The notes beneath the pieces were generated by a model, which saw nothing but the letters and a program-made list of their open reading frames with translations, searched no databases and was not told the DNA's origin. DNA of 63,172 nucleotides, the filler included. It is 5 parts of 5 records of this genome, joined end to end, with 100 filler letters (N's around TTAATTAATTAA, not from the genome) between each part and the next. Parts side by side here need not be neighbours in the genome. Positions count along the whole stretch, not along the records: positions 1 to 15,512 come from SRR31156797_23026; 4 more parts are not named here. One strand, written 5' to 3'. This document shows, piece by piece, positions 2,202 to 57,054 of the stretch (position 1 is the first letter of the stretch; each line of letters starts with the position of its first letter). The translations under genes and the position numbers were made by a program.

Positions 2202-3215
2202 ATGGCGAAATGGACACTTGAGGAACTGTTGCAAACCGACCCGCAGGATTTTGAGACACTACTTTCCGGACTTTTCTCTGGAATGGGATATAAAACAGAG
2301 CCCACCCAATACTCAAGGGACAGGGGCATAGACATAGTAATCAGCATTGAAAACTTCGGACTCTCACACACGTGGCTGGTACAGGCAAAGAGATACACAG
2401 GTTCTGTTGGTGTAAAAGAGGTCAGGGAATACAGCAGCCTTCGCTACAGGGATCGTGTGGACGGTGTTATCATTGTTACAACTTCCAGTTTCACAAAAGA
2501 AGCAATGCAGGAAGCAGAAGAACACAATGTGAAACTAATAGACGGAAATCTGCTCACAGGAATGCTCAATCATTATCTGCCAGACGGATCCACAGAACCT
2601 GGCAATCATCGGCAAGGATATTCCCCTGAAGAGATAGGCAACGGAGCTATCCTGAAAAATGGAGAAGAGATCATTGCCAGTGAAGTAGTAATGACAAGTA
2701 ACGGTAAATTCACTCTCAATATCACTAACAGAAACATATTCCTGAAAAAGGAGAGTTCAAGCCTTTTTTCAAAGAACTCCAACATAGAAGAAAGAATAGA
2801 GGTCAAAGATATAGTCGGACTTCATACCGAAGACAACAGAGCGATACTAATTACCGGAAAAAAGAAGCTTAAACTGTACACACTAAACTCTGGAAAGCTT
2901 CCTGAACTCATGGAGATATTCAACACCTTGCAGCCAGAATATCTAAGAGGTGAGCACCTCATCCTTTCCTCAAGGAATGGAACACAGCTCACTATACTCA
3001 CCAACAAACGCCTTGTTATCACGGATATTTCCGAAGGGATGGTTACAGAAATCCAGAACAAAAAAATAGTTGGTGTTGAGGTAACCGGTGGCTTCCTCAA
3101 AAAGGACCAGTTGCATGTACTGGAAGATTCGGATGTTGTAACAAAACACCAGTTAGACGTTGATGATCCTTCTAAATGGAGGGATAGTATAGGGCAATGC
3201 GTCAGAACTTCGTGA
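2202..3215 (+). CDS. Mrr-like restriction endonuclease domain fused to two bacterial PH-like domains
   Basis: N-terminal DFETLLSGLF..GY...DRGIDIV...LVQAKRY...V.VKEVRE...IIVTTSSFTKEA (Mrr_cat PD-(D/Q)xK signature); C-terminal two repeats of (L..GE.(I/L)I)...(L/I)TN(R/K)(N/R)(I/L)...I..K.IVG. Confidence 0.8.
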   Translation: MAKWTLEELLQTDPQDFETLLSGLFSGMGYKTEPTQYSRDRGIDIVISIENFGLSHTWLVQAKRYTGSVGVKEVREYSSLRYRDRVDGVIIVTTSSFTKEAMQEAEEHNVKLIDGNLLTGMLNHYLPDGSTEPGNHRQGYSPEEIGNGAILKNGEEIIASEVVMTSNGKFTLNITNRNIFLKKESSSLFSKNSNIEERIEVKDIVGLHTEDNRAILITGKKKLKLYTLNSGKLPELMEIFNTLQPEYLRGEHLILSSRNGTQLTILTNKRLVITDISEGMVTEIQNKKIVGVEVTGGFLKKDQLHVLEDSDVVTKHQLDVDDPSKWRDSIGQCVRTS

Positions 3216-7133: not shown

Positions 7134-8114
7134 TTAGTCCAGATCCACGTGAGGATTGATGTCACAGCCAGTACATGGCAGGCACATTGTATCAAAAGTA
7201 TCTGCACGCAGGCCGTATTCATCCAGTTTTTCCTTCAGGAAACGGTTTAGATGCAGCAACCTTTCTGCAGATGGTCTTTCCACAGTTACTTCACCTTCAC
7301 GCAAAGGATGCTGTGCAGCTGCCCTGAGAATCGGCAGAACACCAATAGAGACAAGTTCTTCAATACCTTTCTCTGCAGACTCATCTGTTTCACCAAGACC
7401 GACTATGAAGTTTGAACATACCTTGTTCTTTCCGAATACCTTTACACCTTCTCGAAGTGAATCGAGCAGGAATTCGAGGTCCTGGTCAGGACACAGTTCA
7501 GCATGGAGTTTACGGTCCATTGTTTCAACGTTGTATTTGAGCTCGTCAGCACCTGCTGCCTTGAGCCTTCTGGTGGAATCCTCTGTAGGATAGACTGATA
7601 CACCGATAGGTATGTCATACTTTTCTCTTAGCCTTCGGATAAGTTCCTCAGCCCTGTCAACCTCTTTCTCTGCGGATACCTCTACACCGGAAGTAATGGA
7701 AATAGCTTTCATGCCGCCTGTTCCATTGGCATCTGCTATCATCCTGAGCATCTGTTCCATGCTTTTGACCTTACCTCCAAGTTTTGGGACCGGGCAGAAC
7801 TTACAATCGAAGACACACTGCTCGCACATGGTAATAAAAGCCTGATCGGGACAGTGGATCAGTTCCTCTTCGATGCTACCCCTTGCTATCTCTGTTCCAT
7901 TCTTCCTGATTACAAGTTCCCCGTCCTCCATCTTTGCTTCCAGTAGAGAGCTTTCCTTGACTGCAAGACGTACACGGTGACCTTCAGAGTTGAAAAAGAA
8001 AGCTACATTACCGGCTCCTGGACCGGCTGTAGGAATAGTTAACCAATGGATGAGAGAAGGGTCCATTTTCACTGACCCCACTGAGATGAGTTGTGCTTTA
8101 ATTTCTGGTTTCAT
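7134..8114 (-). CDS. Radical SAM protein (biotin/lipoate-synthase-like barrel), function unknown
   Basis: CVFDCKFC (CxxxCxxC), YNVET, SNFIVGLGET; extra C-terminal CLPCTGC. Confidence 0.88.
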   Translation of the reverse strand: MKPEIKAQLISVGSVKMDPSLIHWLTIPTAGPGAGNVAFFFNSEGHRVRLAVKESSLLEAKMEDGELVIRKNGTEIARGSIEEELIHCPDQAFITMCEQCVFDCKFCPVPKLGGKVKSMEQMLRMIADANGTGGMKAISITSGVEVSAEKEVDRAEELIRRLREKYDIPIGVSVYPTEDSTRRLKAAGADELKYNVETMDRKLHAELCPDQDLEFLLDSLREGVKVFGKNKVCSNFIVGLGETDESAEKGIEELVSIGVLPILRAAAQHPLREGEVTVERPSAERLLHLNRFLKEKLDEYGLRADTFDTMCLPCTGCDINPHVDLD

Positions 8115-8386
8115 GGGTGCTCCAATACCAAATGTGTGATCGTTTTTAGTAATGTATCTATACAGGTTATTTTTGCCTGGAATACTTTATTGTTTCCCCA
8201 GGTCATTCCAGAGTGATCAACAAGATCACCCTGTTTTTTCCTCCGCTACAGCTAGTATGTAGGCTACTTAAATTGAACAAATATTATGCATTGAACCTTA
8301 ATGATTATTTGGCCCAAATTTTATTTTATACTATGCGAACAATAGATCGTTTGTTAAAAGGACATCCGTGATCCTGGGAGAAAAAG

Positions 8387-9547
8387 ATGCCTATTGATCC
8401 TATATGTAAAAAGATAGTTCCCGAAACTACACCGTTTGATACGGAATACGGAGGAAAGACCTATCATTTTTGTTCTGACTGGTGCCAGGTCAAGTTTGAG
8501 CACCTTGAAAAAAGTGTGATCAGAATGAAGAGATCCATTCCTGAAAAAGAGCGTATAGCTTTTGGAAAACTCAGGAAGGACATAATTAAACCGGGAATTT
8601 GTACTTTATGTGGAGCCTGTTCAGCTACATGCGAATCTATTACTATCAAAAATGAACAGCCTACCCTTGTTGACAAGTGTACAGCATGTGGTGTTTGTTA
8701 TAATCAGTGCCCTCGAACCATAACAACTGAAGAAGGACTGGTTGGAAAAATGCGCAATGCATACAGAGCACGTTCAGCACTTCCTGAGATCAATGGACAG
8801 GATGGCGGAGTTGTGACCTCTATGCTGGCATATGCACTTGATGAAGGACTCATTGACTGTGCCATTGTCACAAAAAGGTCAGAGGAAGAGCCATGGAAAC
8901 CTGTACCTGTTATTGCACGCACATCTGAGGATCTGCTGGATTCATCCGGTAGTATGTATAGCCACAGTATGACAATGAATGCTCTGATGAGTGCTATCAA
9001 ACAGGGATGGAGAAGTATTGCCTTTGTGGGTCCTAGCTGCAATATCGATGCGGTCACCAAGATGCAGAAAAGCCCGTATGGATTCCTGAACCTGTTTATG
9101 AGGGCAAACATCCTGAAGCTGGGGCTGTTCTGCATGGATACTTTCTATTACGAAGGAATCAAGGAATTTGTGCAAAGCAAGGATATGCGTCTGGAAGATA
9201 TCGAATCCATGAAGATACGCAAGGGACAGTTCGAATTCCATACCAATGAAGAACTTAAGGTATACCCTCTCCATGAGCTTGATATGTACAGGAGCAGTTC
9301 ATGCAAGTTCTGCACGGACATGGCTTCAGAAAATGCCGACATTTCATTTGGAGGCGTAGGTACACCACAGGGATGGACTACTGTTCTTGCCCGCTCAGGT
9401 CTTGGATATGAATTATACAATGAAGCCGTAGATAATGGTTACATTGACTCACATCTCCTTGAAGAAAAAGAAATGAAGGGAGCCCTTAATCTTGCTAAGA
9501 TGAAGAAGATCCAGATGTATTCACTCAACCGCAGACAGAATATATAA
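8387..9547 (+). CDS. YHS/TRASH + 2[4Fe-4S] ferredoxin + coenzyme F420 hydrogenase/dehydrogenase beta (FrhB-family) protein
   Basis: DPIC...YHFCSDWC (YHS); CTLCGACSATC and CTACGVCYNQCP; GQDGGVVT, VGPSC, GLFC, CKFCTD, ADISFGGVG (FrhB). Confidence 0.88.
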   Translation: MPIDPICKKIVPETTPFDTEYGGKTYHFCSDWCQVKFEHLEKSVIRMKRSIPEKERIAFGKLRKDIIKPGICTLCGACSATCESITIKNEQPTLVDKCTACGVCYNQCPRTITTEEGLVGKMRNAYRARSALPEINGQDGGVVTSMLAYALDEGLIDCAIVTKRSEEEPWKPVPVIARTSEDLLDSSGSMYSHSMTMNALMSAIKQGWRSIAFVGPSCNIDAVTKMQKSPYGFLNLFMRANILKLGLFCMDTFYYEGIKEFVQSKDMRLEDIESMKIRKGQFEFHTNEELKVYPLHELDMYRSSSCKFCTDMASENADISFGGVGTPQGWTTVLARSGLGYELYNEAVDNGYIDSHLLEEKEMKGALNLAKMKKIQMYSLNRRQNI

Positions 9548-9570
9548 TCAAAAATTTATTTTATGAATTG

Positions 9571-9598
9571 TGCAACAACTTTTTATAATATTGTTGCA
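9571..9598. promoter_or_regulatory. Inverted repeat bracketing a TATA box upstream of the small membrane protein gene
   Basis: TGCAACAA-CTTTTTATAATA-TTGTTGCA. Confidence 0.45.
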
Positions 9599-9610
9599 AA
9601 ATATTAAACT

Positions 9611-9922
9611 GTGAGCGAAGTTAGTTTATCGTGGATACCTTCTATTAGCAGAAAGATAGTTATAGCCTCTTTTCTTGCTGTTGGATGGGTATTTATTGCG
9701 CTTATTAGCGCGACTGTATTGAATATAGTAAGTTATGAAGAAGTCAGGTATTTCCATTGGATAATACTACTTACCCTGCCTGTGTGGATATTACTTGAAT
9801 CGCGTTCTACGCCCAAAAAGTTCAATGCTAAGGATGAAAAGAGGGGCATCATAGCAATGGTAGTAACTTTTGCAGCCTTTGTAATTGTAGCTCTGGCAGC
9901 TTTTCTGCAGGGAAACATCTGA
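9611..9922 (+). CDS. Small three-helix membrane protein, unknown function
   Basis: 103 aa, three hydrophobic segments, GTG start. Confidence 0.6.
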   Translation: MSEVSLSWIPSISRKIVIASFLAVGWVFIALISATVLNIVSYEEVRYFHWIILLTLPVWILLESRSTPKKFNAKDEKRGIIAMVVTFAAFVIVALAAFLQGNI

Positions 9923-9984
9923 AATTTGTGTGTTTTTATGACAAAACCTCTCCATTTTTAACTTTAGCCATACAATATCCAATT

Positions 9985-10791
9985 ATGACCTCACATGACT
10001 ACGTCCACGGCTACTCCGAAAGAGAATCAGTCCGCCTCAGCGACCAGGCAAATACACTTGAAGAACTCCTGCACAGCGATACGAAATATCCGGCCGGGAG
10101 TAAAGTGCTTGAAGCCGGATGCGGTATCGGTGCACAGACTGTCATCCTCGCAAAGAACAGCCCTCAGGCACAGATAACATCCATAGACATATCGGAGGAT
10201 TCCCTGAACAAAGCTAAAGAACGTGCCGCAAAAGAAGGAATCACAAATGTGGAGTTCCGCGTGGAAAGTATCTTCGACCTCCCCTTTGAGGAGGAGAGCT
10301 TCGACCATATTTTTGTTTGCTTCGTGCTTGAACACCTCAAAGAACCAGTTAAAGCACTGGCAAACCTGCGCAGAGTACTCAGAAAGGGCGGCACCATCAC
10401 AGTTATCGAAGGCGACCACGGATCATGTTTCTTTCACCCTGAAACAGAGGGCGCAGTGAAAGCCTGGAATAGCCTGATCGAAGTACAGGCGAGACTCGGC
10501 GGCGAATCACTCATCGGCAGGCAGGTCTATCCACTTATCAAGCAGGCAGGCTTCACCGACATCACCGTATCACCTCGCATGGTTTATAGCGATTCCAGCA
10601 GGCCACACATGGAGGAAGGTTTTGTAAGAAGGACCATTATCCCCATGGTGGAAGGAGTCAGGGAGAATGCCATTGATATGGGAATTATTGATGCAAATAC
10701 GTTTGACAGAGGGATTGAGGATTTGCACAGGACAGCGGCGGAGTATGGAACTTTCAATTATATGTTCTTTAAGGGTGTGGGAAAAAAGTAA
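9985..10791 (+). CDS. Class I SAM-dependent methyltransferase
   Basis: VLEAGCGIG motif I, SFDHIFVCFVLEHL, RVLRKGG; start moved from the track's 9928 to the in-frame ATG at 9985 (MTSHDYVHGYS). Confidence 0.9.
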   Translation: MTSHDYVHGYSERESVRLSDQANTLEELLHSDTKYPAGSKVLEAGCGIGAQTVILAKNSPQAQITSIDISEDSLNKAKERAAKEGITNVEFRVESIFDLPFEEESFDHIFVCFVLEHLKEPVKALANLRRVLRKGGTITVIEGDHGSCFFHPETEGAVKAWNSLIEVQARLGGESLIGRQVYPLIKQAGFTDITVSPRMVYSDSSRPHMEEGFVRRTIIPMVEGVRENAIDMGIIDANTFDRGIEDLHRTAAEYGTFNYMFFKGVGKK

Positions 10792-11196: not shown

Positions 11197-11358
11197 ATGG
11201 CAGCGATGAGTAATGAATTTTTTATTATGCAGTCAATTGTTTCGTCTTCACTTATGGATTCTATTCTTATGGCTGCACGTGAAAGTGACCCAGAGGTGCA
11301 GCGAGAGGCTCTGAAGCAGTTGATTGAGCTTGTTCTTCATGCTATTTTAAAGAAATAA
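11197..11358 (+). pseudogene. Short ORF, possibly the C-terminal remnant of a helical regulator (TetR-like)
   Basis: MAAMSNEFFIMQSIVSSSLMDSILMAARESDPEVQREALKQLIELVLHAILKK*; reads like a natural amphipathic C-terminus, family assignment weak. Confidence 0.25.
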
Positions 11359-11480
11359 TTAGGATGAAAGTCCATAGAATGAGATTTTGCACAGGATGGA
11401 GTGGAAGTACAAAACTATAAATATCAGCTAAACTTTTTTTATTGCGTTGATTGAAGTTAAAGTGTGGAGGGTAATCTGTA

Positions 11481-13508
11481 ATGAGGGCTTGGATAGTAGA
11501 TGGTGCTAATTTTTTAAAAACTGGAGAGAAGGGAATTAAAAAAGGAGACTTGACAACTACTAATAAGATTGACACTTTTCTTAAGGAAGACAATATCAAT
11601 TTTATAGTTGCACCTAAAGGCTACGGAAAAACAATCCTGTTAATATATAAACGATTATCATATGAATATTTTAATAAAAAACCAGGTTTTAAATATATCC
11701 CATCGGGTTCATCCTTAATAGACATTCCTAAAGGAGGTGCAGCAAACCTCAATTGGGGCGAACTCATGATTAAATTTTACAAAGACCAGAAAAATTGGGA
11801 AGGAATCTGGAGGGTTTGTATATCTTTATCGATGGTTCAAATTATTAAAAAGTGTTCACTTGACACTCACTATTCTATAAAAGAGAGTAATGATTGGCTG
11901 GAGGAAATCAGAAAAGACAAAGATGGAGTAAGATATCCATTACTCCGGAAATTAATTTATGAACATGTATTTGGAACACCACTGAGCTATTTAAATCATA
12001 TTTTAACTAATTTCAATCAATCAACGATTAGAAATCTTTTAAAAGAGCAACAATTTATGGATGAATTGGTAGCAGATATAGAAATACCAATAGCTATTTT
12101 TATTGACAATGTTGATGAATATTTTTCAGAGCACTTTGAGAAAGAGGGAGAAGAACACAGTCCTTCTGTAAGAGGGATATTTGACATTGATCTCTGGTAT
12201 GTATCACAGCAAGGGTTGATGTTTGCAATTAAAAGCATGTGTCGCTCCAACCGTCATTTAGATATTTTTGCGTCTGTTCGAAAAGAAGCATATATTAATT
12301 TAAAAGGCTCAACAGTAGAGAATATTCGTGGAGCTTGTATTGATATTCACTATTCACATAGCAAATTAAAAAATATTTTTAAAAATAATATTTTATGGAT
12401 GGATAAAAAACATCTAATTAAACCAGACGAAATTCATAGCAATCCAATATTTTCATTTCTGGGGATTTGCAAAATAGAGCATGAAAGTACAGGGGAAAAT
12501 GAAGATATTTTCGATTACGTTTATCGACATACTTTGCAAAGACCCAGAGACATTGTATCAATTGGTGGAAGTTTAGCTGAAATAGATAATGAAGATAGAA
12601 ATACTGAAGCCATAAGAATTGAGATAAACAAAGTCGCAACCCAAATTGCAAACGATTATATGGATATTTTTCTTCCACATACTTGCTTCGATGGAGAAGC
12701 AGAACTAAAGGATGTTTTTAACCGAATTCCTCACAATATACTTCGACTAGAGAACCTAAAACATATATGCTGCAGCTTTAATAATAATCACAATAAAAAC
12801 AATAAAAATTGTAAAACTTGCAACAAAAAACATATTTTTTGTGATCTATATAAACTTGGGCTACTTGGAATTGTTATGTTTGATACCAATGAAAATCGCT
12901 ATAAACAAAAATTTTTGAGCCTCGGGGAGAAGACATTTGAATCTCATGTTTTACCCATTAATCATGATCCAGAGGACAATTATTATTTGATTCATCCTAT
13001 TCTTAACGATATAATTGGTGGAAATCCAAAAACCCGCGTTAATAAAGAAATTACAGTTGGTTATAATAAGGATTGGACTAAGCCAAAGTTACCAGATTTT
13101 CTAACTAAAAAATATAAAATATTTTTGTCACATTCGAGTTATGACAAAGCTTTTGTAGACAAATTAGCTACATCTCTTCATAGTGAAAATATTAGATTGT
13201 GGTATGACAAATGGAACATTGAAGTTGGCGATTCAATTGTTGATGAAATTGATAAAGGAATTAAAGAAAGTGACTTTTTAGGGATAGTTATTTCAAGAAA
13301 CTCTCTAAATTCTAATTGGGTTAAAGAAGAATTGAACTCTGGTATAGTTAGACAACTAAAGGAAAAAAAAACATTTATTTTACCAATTCTAATAGACAAT
13401 GTATGGAATGATGTTCCATCATTTTTATCGGAGAAGAAATATGCTGACTTTAGGACAAATCATAAATCAGGTACTCAAGAGTTGATTAACAAACTAATTG
13501 GTTTATGA
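11481..13508 (+). CDS. P-loop ATPase (Sll1717/STAND-like) with C-terminal TIR domain; putative antiviral defence protein
   Basis: Walker A IVAPKGYGKT, Walker B IAIFIDNVDE, RHTLQRPRDIV motif; TIR: KIFLSHSSYDKAFV...WYDKWNIEVGDSI...SDFLGIVISRNSLNSNWVKEEL...ILPIL...KYADF; visibly AT-richer than its flanks. Confidence 0.88.
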   Translation: MRAWIVDGANFLKTGEKGIKKGDLTTTNKIDTFLKEDNINFIVAPKGYGKTILLIYKRLSYEYFNKKPGFKYIPSGSSLIDIPKGGAANLNWGELMIKFYKDQKNWEGIWRVCISLSMVQIIKKCSLDTHYSIKESNDWLEEIRKDKDGVRYPLLRKLIYEHVFGTPLSYLNHILTNFNQSTIRNLLKEQQFMDELVADIEIPIAIFIDNVDEYFSEHFEKEGEEHSPSVRGIFDIDLWYVSQQGLMFAIKSMCRSNRHLDIFASVRKEAYINLKGSTVENIRGACIDIHYSHSKLKNIFKNNILWMDKKHLIKPDEIHSNPIFSFLGICKIEHESTGENEDIFDYVYRHTLQRPRDIVSIGGSLAEIDNEDRNTEAIRIEINKVATQIANDYMDIFLPHTCFDGEAELKDVFNRIPHNILRLENLKHICCSFNNNHNKNNKNCKTCNKKHIFCDLYKLGLLGIVMFDTNENRYKQKFLSLGEKTFESHVLPINHDPEDNYYLIHPILNDIIGGNPKTRVNKEITVGYNKDWTKPKLPDFLTKKYKIFLSHSSYDKAFVDKLATSLHSENIRLWYDKWNIEVGDSIVDEIDKGIKESDFLGIVISRNSLNSNWVKEELNSGIVRQLKEKKTFILPILIDNVWNDVPSFLSEKKYADFRTNHKSGTQELINKLIGL

Positions 13509-13669
13509 ACATTATCTTTTAAACCTCAAATGTTTTGGTAACTTACCTAGATTACAGAACCAAAGATTTAATTCTTAGTCAAAGCTATTCAAAATAATTA
13601 TAAATTCAGGTAAAATGACTATAAAGAAACGTATGTTTCCATTTAGGCGAAAGCACATTGGTGAAAATA

Positions 13670-14314
13670 ATGCTGAACGACAATCAATCACTAATTCATT
13701 TTTACTACAAAAATTGTTCAGCAGGATTAGAAATCCATTTTCTAGTAATAGTATTAATAGCATTTGTAGTAATAATATTCTTTATCAAAACATTTTATAA
13801 AAAACAATTCCATGTTGACTATATTGATTTAAACTTCGACGCTAAACTGTTGAAATGCACTTACCATTTAGAACGAAATTATGAGAATTTGGAATTTGCT
13901 CATCGAATTTATACTGAACTAGTTACTAGGAAAGCAGCCATACCTGTCGAACCAAATAAAGATATTATTAAAGAAATATATGATTCGTGGTATGTCTTAT
14001 TTGGAATCACAAGGGGAGAAATCAAGAAGTTAACAGGTAAATCACTTCAAAGTGATTATTGTAATAATTTAGTTTCGATGTCAATTGATATTTTGAATAT
14101 TGGTTTGCGACCCCATTTGACTGCACACCAAGCAAAATTCAGAAAATGGTATTATGAAGAACTAGCTAAAGATGAAAGCATGGGTAAATCTCCACAAGAA
14201 ATCCAAAAAGCATACTATGAGTACGATGAATTGATGGACTCAATCAGAAATGTTAACGAATTGCTAGTCCAATATGCAGAGAATTTAAAAGATTTTATGA
14301 ATAAGGCCAAGTAG
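13670..14314 (+). CDS. Uncharacterised protein with one N-terminal transmembrane helix, partner of the ATPase-TIR gene
   Basis: GGTGA Shine-Dalgarno at 13660-13664 supports the ATG at 13670; hydrophobic IHFLVIVLIAFVVIIFFI, then helical domain ELVTRKAAIP...YDSWY.LF...LRPHLT.HQAKFRKWY. Confidence 0.78.
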   Translation: MLNDNQSLIHFYYKNCSAGLEIHFLVIVLIAFVVIIFFIKTFYKKQFHVDYIDLNFDAKLLKCTYHLERNYENLEFAHRIYTELVTRKAAIPVEPNKDIIKEIYDSWYVLFGITRGEIKKLTGKSLQSDYCNNLVSMSIDILNIGLRPHLTAHQAKFRKWYYEELAKDESMGKSPQEIQKAYYEYDELMDSIRNVNELLVQYAENLKDFMNKAK

Positions 14315-14364
14315 AATACACAATAAATGCTGTTCCTTCAAACGTTCTTTCTGAAAATATCCAT

Positions 14365-15057
14365 ATGGATTCGGTTACATGGATACAGCAGGAAATGGCC
14401 GACAAAAAAGAGCTCAGAGATTTTCTTCAGGCTAATCCTCCTGAAACGACAGGTGTTTTACAGGTTCAGGAATATGTAACACCATACGCTGATGCTGTGC
14501 AGGACTATCTTAAGGATGAAGATTTTGATGACGCAGATGGGATATATGAGACTGCAGTTTCATGGATATGGGCGTCTGATGCTACCCTGAACGACCAGCC
14601 GGATGGGTGGCTTACTCCTACGGAGTTTCTGCAGGATACTCCGGACTTCGATTCAAACCCTGTGTCAGGTGAGATCGTAAGTGATTGTTCCGAACAGGCT
14701 AATACTCTTGCATCGTTACTGATAGGCTCCGGTGGATATGATGAAGATACCTTAAGGGTTGTTATGGGTCAGGTGACCAGCAGTAACACTAATGGCGGAC
14801 ATGCATGGATCGAAGTCTACGAGGACGGGGAATGGTTCCCTGTGGATGCCACAGTAGGTCCGCACTATGATGAGGACCTTGAGGAAGTGGTCTATCCTGA
14901 TAATTACAAAGATATTGACTTCGATTACTTCCGGGATGAAAACTACTTTGTGGTAGATATCTGGTATTATTATAACAATGAATACATCATTGATGTAAGT
15001 TCAGGTACAGGAGAAGCACCTGATAATTGGGATTCCACTCCTTCCAGTTATTATTGA
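14365..15057 (+). CDS. Transglutaminase-like (Cys-His-Asp) domain protein, probably 5'-truncated
   Basis: SDCSEQA (Cys), GGHAWIEV (His), PVDAT (Asp); very acidic; frame stays open upstream to 14305 with no ATG. Confidence 0.75.
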   Translation: MDSVTWIQQEMADKKELRDFLQANPPETTGVLQVQEYVTPYADAVQDYLKDEDFDDADGIYETAVSWIWASDATLNDQPDGWLTPTEFLQDTPDFDSNPVSGEIVSDCSEQANTLASLLIGSGGYDEDTLRVVMGQVTSSNTNGGHAWIEVYEDGEWFPVDATVGPHYDEDLEEVVYPDNYKDIDFDYFRDENYFVVDIWYYYNNEYIIDVSSGTGEAPDNWDSTPSSYY

Positions 15058-15512: not shown

Positions 15513-15612
15513 NNNNNNNNNNNNNNNNNNNNNNNNNNNNNNNNNNNNNNNNNNNNTTAATTAATTAANNNNNNNNNNNNNNNNNNNNNNNNNNNNNNNN
15601 NNNNNNNNNNNN
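15513..15612. other. Artificial contig linker
   Basis: 44 N + TTAATTAATTAA (stops in all six frames) + 44 N; composition and taxonomy change across it. Confidence 0.98.
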
Positions 15613-40288: not shown

Positions 40289-40388
40289 NNNNNNNNNNNN
40301 NNNNNNNNNNNNNNNNNNNNNNNNNNNNNNNNTTAATTAATTAANNNNNNNNNNNNNNNNNNNNNNNNNNNNNNNNNNNNNNNNNNNN
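40289..40388. other. Artificial contig linker
   Basis: 44 N + TTAATTAATTAA + 44 N. Confidence 0.98.
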
Positions 40389-50096: not shown

Positions 50097-50196
50097 NNNN
50101 NNNNNNNNNNNNNNNNNNNNNNNNNNNNNNNNNNNNNNNNTTAATTAATTAANNNNNNNNNNNNNNNNNNNNNNNNNNNNNNNNNNNNNNNNNNNN
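50097..50196. other. Artificial contig linker
   Basis: 44 N + TTAATTAATTAA + 44 N. Confidence 0.98.
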
Positions 50197-56954: not shown

Positions 56955-57054
56955 NNNNNNNNNNNNNNNNNNNNNNNNNNNNNNNNNNNNNNNNNNNNTT
57001 AATTAATTAANNNNNNNNNNNNNNNNNNNNNNNNNNNNNNNNNNNNNNNNNNNN
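56955..57054. other. Artificial contig linker
   Basis: 44 N + TTAATTAATTAA + 44 N. Confidence 0.98.

Follow-up and report, generated by a model that had tools for sequence, protein, structure and literature searches.

The island and its two genes

The stretch of DNA analysed here (the window, 63,172 nucleotides) consists of five contigs joined by N44-TTAATTAATTAA-N44 spacers at 15513-15612, 40289-40388, 50097-50196 and 56955-57054. Its first contig carries an AT-rich island of ~3 kb with two co-oriented genes: gene 1 encodes an Sll1717-family ATPase with a C-terminal TIR domain, and gene 2 encodes a small protein with one predicted transmembrane helix, from a family that has no name. The GC contents of the five contigs, in order, are 0.415, 0.315, 0.421, 0.550 and 0.489, and the bin may therefore mix organisms; the context of the island was restricted to contig 1 (1-15512, GC 0.415), sequence past 15512 being unusable for this purpose. 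The features of the island, with positions in the window, are as follows.

11360..14330, no strand: AT-rich island with both genes inside, delimited by GC and by GC at third codon positions (GC3)
11481..13508, + strand: gene 1, 675-aa Sll1717-family ATPase with C-terminal TIR (open reading frame (ORF), NF047389, TIR_2, AlphaFold2 (AF2) model)
11481..13070, + strand: ATPase module, residues 1-530, with a predicted ORC/Cdc6-like AAA+/STAND-like fold (VIA-align)
11610..11633, + strand: Walker A, APKGYGKT, residues 44-51; K46, G47, G49, K50 and T51 nearly invariant (35 sequences)
12096..12119, + strand: Walker B, IFIDNVDE, residues 206-213; D209 and D212 invariant (35 sequences)
12540..12551, + strand: RPRD, residues 354-357, within the signature HTLxRPRD; P355 invariant, R354 and R356 nearly so
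12768..12842, + strand: Cys/His cluster, ~residues 430-454, consensus ICxxxN...CxxCxxxHxFCxLYKxGLLG (35 sequences)
13110..13505, + strand: TIR domain, residues 544-675 (Pfam TIR_2 and TIR, Protein Data Bank (PDB) matches, Foldseek, PADLOC)
13329..13331, + strand: codon of E617, putative catalytic Glu of the TIR domain (alignment to the AbTir 'YEL' Glu)
13509..13669, no strand: inter-gene spacer, 161 nt, GC 0.27, a wider gap than is usual for the family, whose operons typically have the TIR gene overlapping or abutting gene 2
13670..14314, + strand: gene 2, from an unnamed family associated with TIR genes; 214 aa if started at the ATG, 218 aa if started at a TTG at 13658
13739..13807, + strand: predicted transmembrane helix of gene 2, residues 28-50 (TTG numbering), AF2 helix with the hydrophobic segment LEIHFLVIVLIAFVVIIFFIKTF
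13880..14302, + strand: conserved helical domain of gene 2, residues 75-215 (23-sequence alignment, AF2)

Judged by its profile match, gene 1 is a clear relative of the Sll1717 family that falls just below the naming threshold: NCBIfam model NF047389 ('P-loop ATPase, Sll1717 family') aligns with residues 26-508 over profile positions 19-450 of 454 (E 5.3e-19), at 68.7 bits against a curated cut-off of 75. Across 35 aligned relatives, K50, T51, D209, D212, R354, P355 and R356 are invariant or nearly so, and the Cys/His cluster presents a possible metal site. The AF2 model (predicted local distance difference test (pLDDT) 84.5) contains no TPR, WD40 or LRR sensor, in agreement with the original prediction, which had seen neither TPR nor WD40 repeats. 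In VIA-align comparisons the ATPase module matched the archaeal AAA+ protein SSO1545 (2fna_B; Z 10.8, rmsd 5.2, 318 aligned), Cdc6/Orc1 (2qby_A; Z 10.5, 323 aligned) and the plant TIR-NLR WRR4A (9qlv_A; Z 10.3, 296 aligned); these fold matches over ~300-320 residues suggest that the module is an ORC/Cdc6-like, STAND-like switch that lacks a repeat sensor.

The C-terminal domain was recognised by Pfam TIR_2 (E 9.2e-28, residues 547-667), by PDB sequence matches to BtTir and to AbTir, the closest solved relative (E 1e-15), and by Foldseek against 7uxu_A (E 1.8e-5, TM-score 0.81 normalised by target). E617, the second Glu of NWVKEEL, pairs in the AbTir alignment with the Glu of 'YEL', which we take to be the catalytic Glu of AbTir. 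The motif positions, the 35-sequence alignment and the AbTir alignment together bear out the reading of gene 1 from which this work started, namely Walker A and B motifs, RPRD, a Cys/His segment and a C-terminal TIR domain that keeps its Glu. PADLOC models matched the TIR part of gene 1 alone, the best being PDC-S66 (E 9.4e-28); the TIR-NLR model likewise covers only the TIR domain (residues 546-644), and no Avs model was among the PADLOC matches of gene 1.

For gene 2, the ATG at 13670 is favoured as the start because of the N-termini of its homologues. The AF2 model (pLDDT 81.9) comprises short N-terminal hairpins, a hydrophobic helix at residues 28-50 and a helical bundle at 75-215, as had been anticipated from the sequence in outline (one transmembrane helix and a helical domain). 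The Lys-rich KTFYKKQ that follows the helix would, by the positive-inside rule, place the C-terminal domain probably in the cytosol. An alignment of 23 family members, in which archaeal and bacterial proteins are ~40% identical, has 40 invariant columns and the motifs RNYxNLE.AH, TRKAA, EIYxSWYxLF, LNxGLRPHLTxxQAxFRKWY and SPQxIQ. Searches of Pfam, NCBIfam, PADLOC and PHROGs returned nothing for gene 2, and no Pfam match was obtained for any of the 23 members; the original view that neither gene belongs to a named system thus holds, insofar as PADLOC finds only the TIR part of gene 1 and nothing for gene 2. The top VIA-align matches of the gene 2 model were ClyA-family toxins (6mrt_A; Z 9.2, rmsd 4.4, 142 aligned), below a noise level of ~13 for helical bundles, and MakB, YaxB, PaxB and MakA followed at Z 7.0-8.0, under the same noise level; likeness to ClyA-type pore formers is thus retained as a lead only. 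Kinship with DUF6650/ThsG (PF20355), a lead that came from an Atlas cluster (score 0.78, 13% DUF6650 members), was rejected: hhalign against the DUF6650 alignment gave 0.07% probability, and single sequences also gave nothing.

The two genes differ in composition from the flanking genes. GC is 0.28-0.33 within the island (11500-14250), compared to 0.44-0.51 (9750-10750) and 0.42-0.45 (14250-15000) in the flanks, and GC3 is 0.25 for the ATPase part, 0.20 for the TIR part and 0.27 for gene 2, compared to 0.36-0.53 for the ten other genes of contig 1. The island is therefore compositionally foreign within a methanogen-type contig, the rest of which holds archaeal/methanogen-type genes (DUF2114, an FrhB-like protein, CopA, a radical SAM protein and methyltransferases), and the AT-rich block of ~3 kb with two co-oriented genes stands as first described (0.28-0.33 vs 0.42-0.51). 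The gene remnants described on both sides were not confirmed: only short ORFs (83 aa and 53 aa) lie 5' of gene 1, while on the 3' side a 230-aa transglutaminase-like ORF looks intact and a methyltransferase fragment is cut by the contig end at 15512. The 53-aa ORF (11197-11358, +), just 5' of gene 1, contains ESDPEVQREALKQLIELV and resembles a single HEAT/PBS-type repeat; it may be what is left of a gene. A search of the island ends for flanking repeats, direct or inverted, found none, and a sigma-70 promoter scan, with a model unsuited to archaea, stayed at chance level. In a search of sequencing runs the island appeared only in the probable source sample, with no RNA run among the matches listed. 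Some 8 kb upstream, contig 1 also encodes an Mrr-type restriction endonuclease of 337 aa (2202-3215, +; Mrr_cat E 1.7e-30, NA-iREase1 E 2e-13).

Neighbours of gene 2 homologues and relatives of gene 1

Gene 2 belongs to a large family. Homologues number 1006 at E<=0.001 among 1163 candidates, none with a Pfam match, and an exhaustive search gave 706 clusters at 50% identity; 280 relatives occur in 185,579 species genomes, five in viral contigs and two in plasmid records. Hosts include Methanosarcinaceae, Methanoregula, Bacteroidota, Acidobacteriota, Bacillota (including a Bacillus toyonensis plasmid), Pseudomonadota, Chlorobiota, Planctomycetota, Spirochaetota and candidate-phyla bacteria. By record titles the family is mostly bacterial, so the proposal of a specifically archaeal system has to be given up. 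Some members (P0287, P0306, P0310, P0316, P0329, P0333, P0350 and P0379) are longer, at 280-340 aa, and carry the conserved domain at the C-terminus; their extra N-terminal part of 130-190 residues has no significant Pfam match. A literature search found no title or abstract describing the family.

Neighbourhoods were examined at the best 80 of the 280 genome loci, and five viral-collection loci were added for a count of linked TIR genes made with purpose-built TIR hidden Markov models (HMMs; 85 loci). A TIR gene lies <=2.5 kb from the gene 2 homologue in 81 of the 85, and a co-oriented TIR gene lies <=300 nt away in 65 (57 upstream, 8 downstream); one of the four loci that have no TIR gene is at a contig edge. 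Pfam identified the gene directly upstream of gene 2 as TIR in 53/79 cases and as Nmad2 in 11/79, and among co-oriented second upstream genes (56 scanned of 77 listed) there were 34 TIR and 2 Nmad2 genes. Common operons are of the form [TIR][TIR][gene 2] or [TIR][Nmad2][gene 2], with genes that often overlap (e.g. L001, L002, L005 and L014), and the TIR partners match the PADLOC ThsB and PDC-M50B models. Among further neighbours, 40 of 148 match PADLOC at E<=1e-5, a count that stands without a matched background set; 17 of these matches are TIR-type, and among the rest are type IIG and type III restriction, PD-T4-7, mad2 and PDC-S04/S05.

The TIR domains beside gene 2 come in varied architectures. 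At L035 (Bacteroidales) a Roc-COR-TIR protein of 958 aa is encoded 46 nt upstream of gene 2; TIR is fused to WD40 at L033 and to Sel1/TPR at L003; and PDC-S66-type TIRs adjoin gene 2 at L047 (full-length, E 3e-111) and L030. At L023, a Treponema metagenome-assembled genome (MAG), one tight co-oriented operon is made up of four genes, in the order Sll1717-type ATPase, unknown gene, TIR and gene 2 (gaps of 57 nt and 19 nt, then a 4-nt overlap); the stand-alone ATPase was matched by a purpose-built HMM at E 2.4e-13 and by hhalign at 97% probability (E 1.1e-10), with the HTLxRPR motif aligned. Fusion of the partner TIRs to varied sensor-type modules is the pattern expected of a shared effector.

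Other associations of the gene 2 family were seen in passing. Nmad2 (PF18753) stands directly upstream of gene 2 at L020, L022, L026, L027, L032, L038, L050, L064, L067, L072 and L079 and at the second upstream position at L012 and L025, making 13 loci in all, which usually also carry a TIR gene and thus form a recurrent trio of TIR, Nmad2 and gene 2. In a Vicinamibacterales MAG (L068:4077-7441) the gene 2 homologue follows a fusion of thymidylate kinase and 5-hydroxymethyldeoxyuridine (5-hmdU) kinase and a thymidylate synthase (TS)-like gene, and it is preceded by a uracil phosphoribosyltransferase (UPRTase) gene at L006 and by a SIR2-like gene at L011, so that nucleotide enzymes of other kinds are among the partners of the family as well. 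A caspase-like gene, PDC-S04 (E 3e-126) and PDC-S05 (E 1.5e-145) flank gene 2 in Chlorobiaceae (L009:2631-3584, 7967-9816; same in L010), a locus that is a dense defence island. In Lysinibacillus (L057:3687-7513) genes for a 682-aa protein with TIR and SLOG-cluster-2 domains and for a 275-aa TIR protein precede the gene 2 homologue, so that this TIR operon holds two candidate outputs. Large unannotated neighbours of gene 2 (670 aa at L009, 683 aa at L003, 497 aa at L001) were considered as members of the ATPase family and found unrelated to it by hhalign. When an Aeromonas Nmad2-gene 2 query was run against 5426 E. coli genomes, only the Nmad2 part was matched (16 genomes), and a literature search found no relevant Nmad2 paper.

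Of 7394 candidates, 131 proved to be relatives of gene 1 at E<=0.001. The TIR form is present at full length in sixteen of them (41-64% identity), and many others have the same ATPase followed by a different C-terminal enzyme: class-3 cyclase (JGI names), PIG-L deacetylase, methyltransferase, kinase, deaminase, AlbA_2 or an ABC-type ATPase. We examined 80 metagenomic loci of the Sll1717 family, of which 78 had no match to the TIR part of gene 1, most resembling relatives named as adenylate cyclases; the two that matched are L086, at 62% identity the nearest relative of gene 1 for which flanking DNA is available, and L087 (44%). Downstream of the gene 1 relative in L086 (L086:1700-2700) lies a second TIR-like frame with in-frame stops, followed by a segment like nucleoside deoxyribosyltransferase (NDT); this frame is a decayed or mis-assembled TIR gene and is not gene 2. 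In L087 unrelated ORFs follow. A plasmid search with the ATPase part of gene 1 returned a Butyrivibrio SEFIR protein (23.5% identity) and an Undibacterium protein (23.4%), the remaining plasmid matches listed covering only TIR, and a search of viral contigs returned no gene 1 relative. No paper on Sll1717 was found in a literature search.

A Thoeris-like reading and its rivals

In the parts of the preprint by Yirmiya et al. (2025; 10.64898/2025.12.03.692087) that were available, Thoeris types V-XI are verified and 29 putative types are listed, several with membrane effectors, and TIR operons with membrane effectors are verified as defence systems. A literature search for ThsJ or type IX Thoeris returned this preprint as the only relevant item. 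The island resembles Thoeris types I-XI in that an apparently catalytically intact TIR has beside it a separate gene that encodes a membrane helix and no TIR; moreover, the usual partners of gene 2 match ThsB models, and several TIR genes with one output gene are typical of Thoeris. It differs in two respects. Gene 2 falls outside the verified effector families ThsA and ThsC-ThsL as far as these are modelled (ThsJ, ThsK and ThsL have no models) and, having no Pfam match, is unmatched by the Pfam models for SIR2, SLOG, Macro, DUF2270, DUF6650 and SLATT. The TIR of the island is fused to a 530-residue ATPase, a class excluded in the available text of 10.64898/2025.12.03.692087; because TIRs in STAND proteins were left aside there, a link between an ATPase-TIR protein and such an output would be new. 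The same source holds 18 unverified effectors (Fig. 1C, Tables S1-S3), among which the gene 2 family may already be included.

Other known systems resemble the island only in part. With the uncharacterised fusions of the Sll1717 family (NF047389) gene 1 shares the Walker A, Walker B, HTLxRPRD and Cys/His motifs and the swappable C-terminal enzyme, but the island copy has a Thoeris-type membrane gene downstream, which is not so in 80/80 other family loci. STAND TIR receptors, such as bacterial TIR-NLR or Avs-like proteins and plant TIR-NLRs, likewise combine an NTPase switch and a TIR domain in one protein; in Avs/AVAST proteins, however, the effector is N-terminal and a repeat sensor C-terminal, whereas gene 1 has the reverse order and no repeat domain. 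Plant TIR-NLRs signal to a separate membrane executioner, a likeness that would extend to the island if gene 1 is coupled to gene 2. Gene 1 matches only positions 137-241 of the 282-position profile of PDC-S66, a single TIR gene, and since the match is confined to the TIR part it does not belong to PDC-S66; gene 2 is recognised by none of the PADLOC models, among them PDC-M50A of the PDC-M50 pair (small protein and TIR), although TIR genes of PDC-S66 and PDC-M50B type do adjoin gene 2 homologues (L047, L030, L033, L035 and others). The E. coli system DS-4 'NTTI' comprises thymidylate synthase, kinase, 5-hmdU kinase, TIR and Nmad2 and appears as validated by DefensePredictor in the available part of PMC13092281. 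As described there, it has TIR, Nmad2, TS-like and 5-hmdU-kinase genes in common with some gene 2 neighbourhoods (L068 and the 13 loci with TIR and Nmad2), but the E. coli locus inspected lacks gene 2, and the window has no Nmad2, TS or kinase gene.

Since the gene 2 family is almost always found beside TIR genes, the island most likely represents a variant form of TIR-signalling (Thoeris-type) antiviral defence. The specific form that we propose, a Thoeris-like system of unusual layout with its TIR signal generator and a STAND-like sensor ATPase joined in one protein, seems to us evenly poised between right and wrong. Gene 1 would unite a sensor switch and a TIR enzyme in one protein and act by abortive infection: once triggered, the Sll1717-family ATPase would bind ATP and multimerise, bringing the C-terminal TIR domains together to cleave nicotinamide adenine dinucleotide (NAD+) and release an ADP-ribose-derived product. 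Gene 2 would be the output, anchored by its single N-terminal membrane helix; its conserved, Arg/Lys/Trp/Tyr-rich and presumably cytosolic helical domain would bind the TIR product, after which the protein would assemble and damage the membrane or otherwise stop growth. Signal production and sensing, membrane attack and an antiviral role are all steps that we infer. A bolder version, which we put forward tentatively, sees here a prokaryotic counterpart of the plant TIR-NLR pathway, in which an NTPase-switched TIR makes an NAD-derived messenger that is read by a separate family of membrane executioners. The receptors, which would not kill by themselves, would be the Sll1717-ATPase-TIR protein of the island, the Roc-COR-TIR protein of L035 and the split form of L023, and gene 2 would represent a new effector of the Thoeris class, with members in archaea and more than ten bacterial phyla.

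The Thoeris-like reading turns on whether gene 1 works with gene 2. In its favour, gene 2 homologues rarely lack a TIR neighbour, the TIR of gene 1 is the only one recognised next to gene 2 among the contig 1 ORFs scanned, partner TIRs at other loci carry sensor-type modules of several kinds, L023 has a stand-alone Sll1717-type ATPase in one operon with TIR and gene 2, and both genes share one low GC3 (0.20-0.27), which we count for coupling. Several observations weigh on the other side. The spacer of 161 nt between the two adjacent, co-oriented genes contrasts with the overlapping junctions usual in the gene 2 family. The ATPase profile matches one of 80 gene 2 loci (L023 alone), none of the 80 metagenomic Sll1717-family loci has a gene 2 homologue, and L086 and L087, the closest TIR-bearing gene 1 relatives with downstream DNA, have no gene 2. 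The exchange of C-terminal enzymes within the Sll1717 family suggests a one-protein system that has its effector in this very domain. In a TIR tree (107 domains, 125 columns, quick method) the TIR of gene 1 groups with eight of its own full-length relatives (SH-aLRT 96), and no supported node joins it to gene 2-linked TIRs; the deeper nodes are unsupported, and the tree therefore says nothing on the origin of the gene 1 TIR. A Foldseek search of the gene 2 model against the PDB gave no match at E<=0.001. Finally, a dense defence neighbourhood was not seen on contig 1, where the Mrr-type endonuclease is the sole other defence-like gene. The ATPase fusion is thus the rare part, and the linkage of the gene 2 family with TIR is near-obligate. 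The partnership of a TIR and a membrane protein proposed in the original prediction accordingly stands at the level of the gene 2 family (81/85 loci) and falls short for the pair itself, which does not recur (1/80, 0/80, L086/L087); the lack of co-occurrence elsewhere, which the original prediction had named as counting against it, is seen at gene level in the loci examined but not at domain level (L023 and L035). The anatomy of both genes, their common foreign composition and the tie of the gene 2 family to TIR genes are established, and the coupling of gene 1 with gene 2 is inferred.

A rather doubtful but serious alternative is that two independent modules lie side by side, gene 1 being a self-sufficient protein, with the ATPase as sensor and the TIR as killer through NAD+ depletion, and gene 2 a Thoeris-type effector orphaned by the loss of its small TIR genes or else served in trans. 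The exchange of C-terminal enzymes in the Sll1717 family, usually a lone gene at the 80 loci, would be expected of such modules, as would the absence of gene 2 from close gene 1 relatives and the length of the spacer; in addition, TIRs in STAND/Avs proteins are set aside as likely NAD+-depleting effectors in the available text of 10.64898/2025.12.03.692087. An orphan would be unusual, however, with gene 2 lacking a TIR gene in only 4/85 loci, and chance juxtaposition sits poorly with the same odd composition of both genes in one sharply bounded 3-kb island and with the occurrence of NTPase, TIR and gene 2 in single operons at L023 and L035.

The remaining alternatives give gene 2 a different role. 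That it is a membrane-bound TIR-binding partner rather than an effector, whether anchor, inhibitor or sensor of envelope events that switches the TIR on, strikes us as improbable. TIR genes do overlap gene 2 in many operons, suggesting translational coupling, the domain of gene 2 shows strong conservation against a changing set of TIR partners, and operons often contain two different TIR genes and no other candidate sensor; yet in the verified Thoeris types the role of effector falls to the non-TIR gene, as far as described in the available parts of 10.64898/2025.12.03.692087, and the conserved basic and aromatic residues would suit a nucleotide pocket equally well as a protein interface. We give still less credence, and very little in all, to a role of the gene 2 family in nucleotide modification or control of nucleotide pools, together with TS, 5-hmdU-kinase, TIR and Nmad2 systems, in place of NAD-derived signalling. 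This idea draws on the Nmad2 genes that precede gene 2 in 11/79 loci, on the TS-like gene and 5-hmdU kinase (L068), UPRTase (L006) and SIR2-like gene (L011) found in the same position, and on the place of the E. coli NTTI system among those validated in the available part of PMC13092281. It has to contend with TIR genes being the sole companions of gene 2 in most loci, with an inspected E. coli NTTI-type locus that has no gene 2, and with the membrane helix of gene 2 and its lack of any enzyme-like fold match.

Implications for TIR signalling

If the coupling of gene 1 with gene 2 is true, STAND-like ATPase-TIR proteins would not always be self-contained NAD+ killers, contrary to the usual assumption, and such a protein could also supply the signal for a membrane output encoded by another gene, following the logic seen in plant TIR-NLR immunity. 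Coupled or not, gene 2 marks a large unnamed family, spread over archaea and many bacterial phyla and tied to ThsB-type TIR genes and sometimes to Nmad2. The family is a candidate for a new type of Thoeris effector and offers a handle on the TIR-made molecule that it would read, and a profile of it would let defence-annotation tools label several hundred operons that now go unlabelled.

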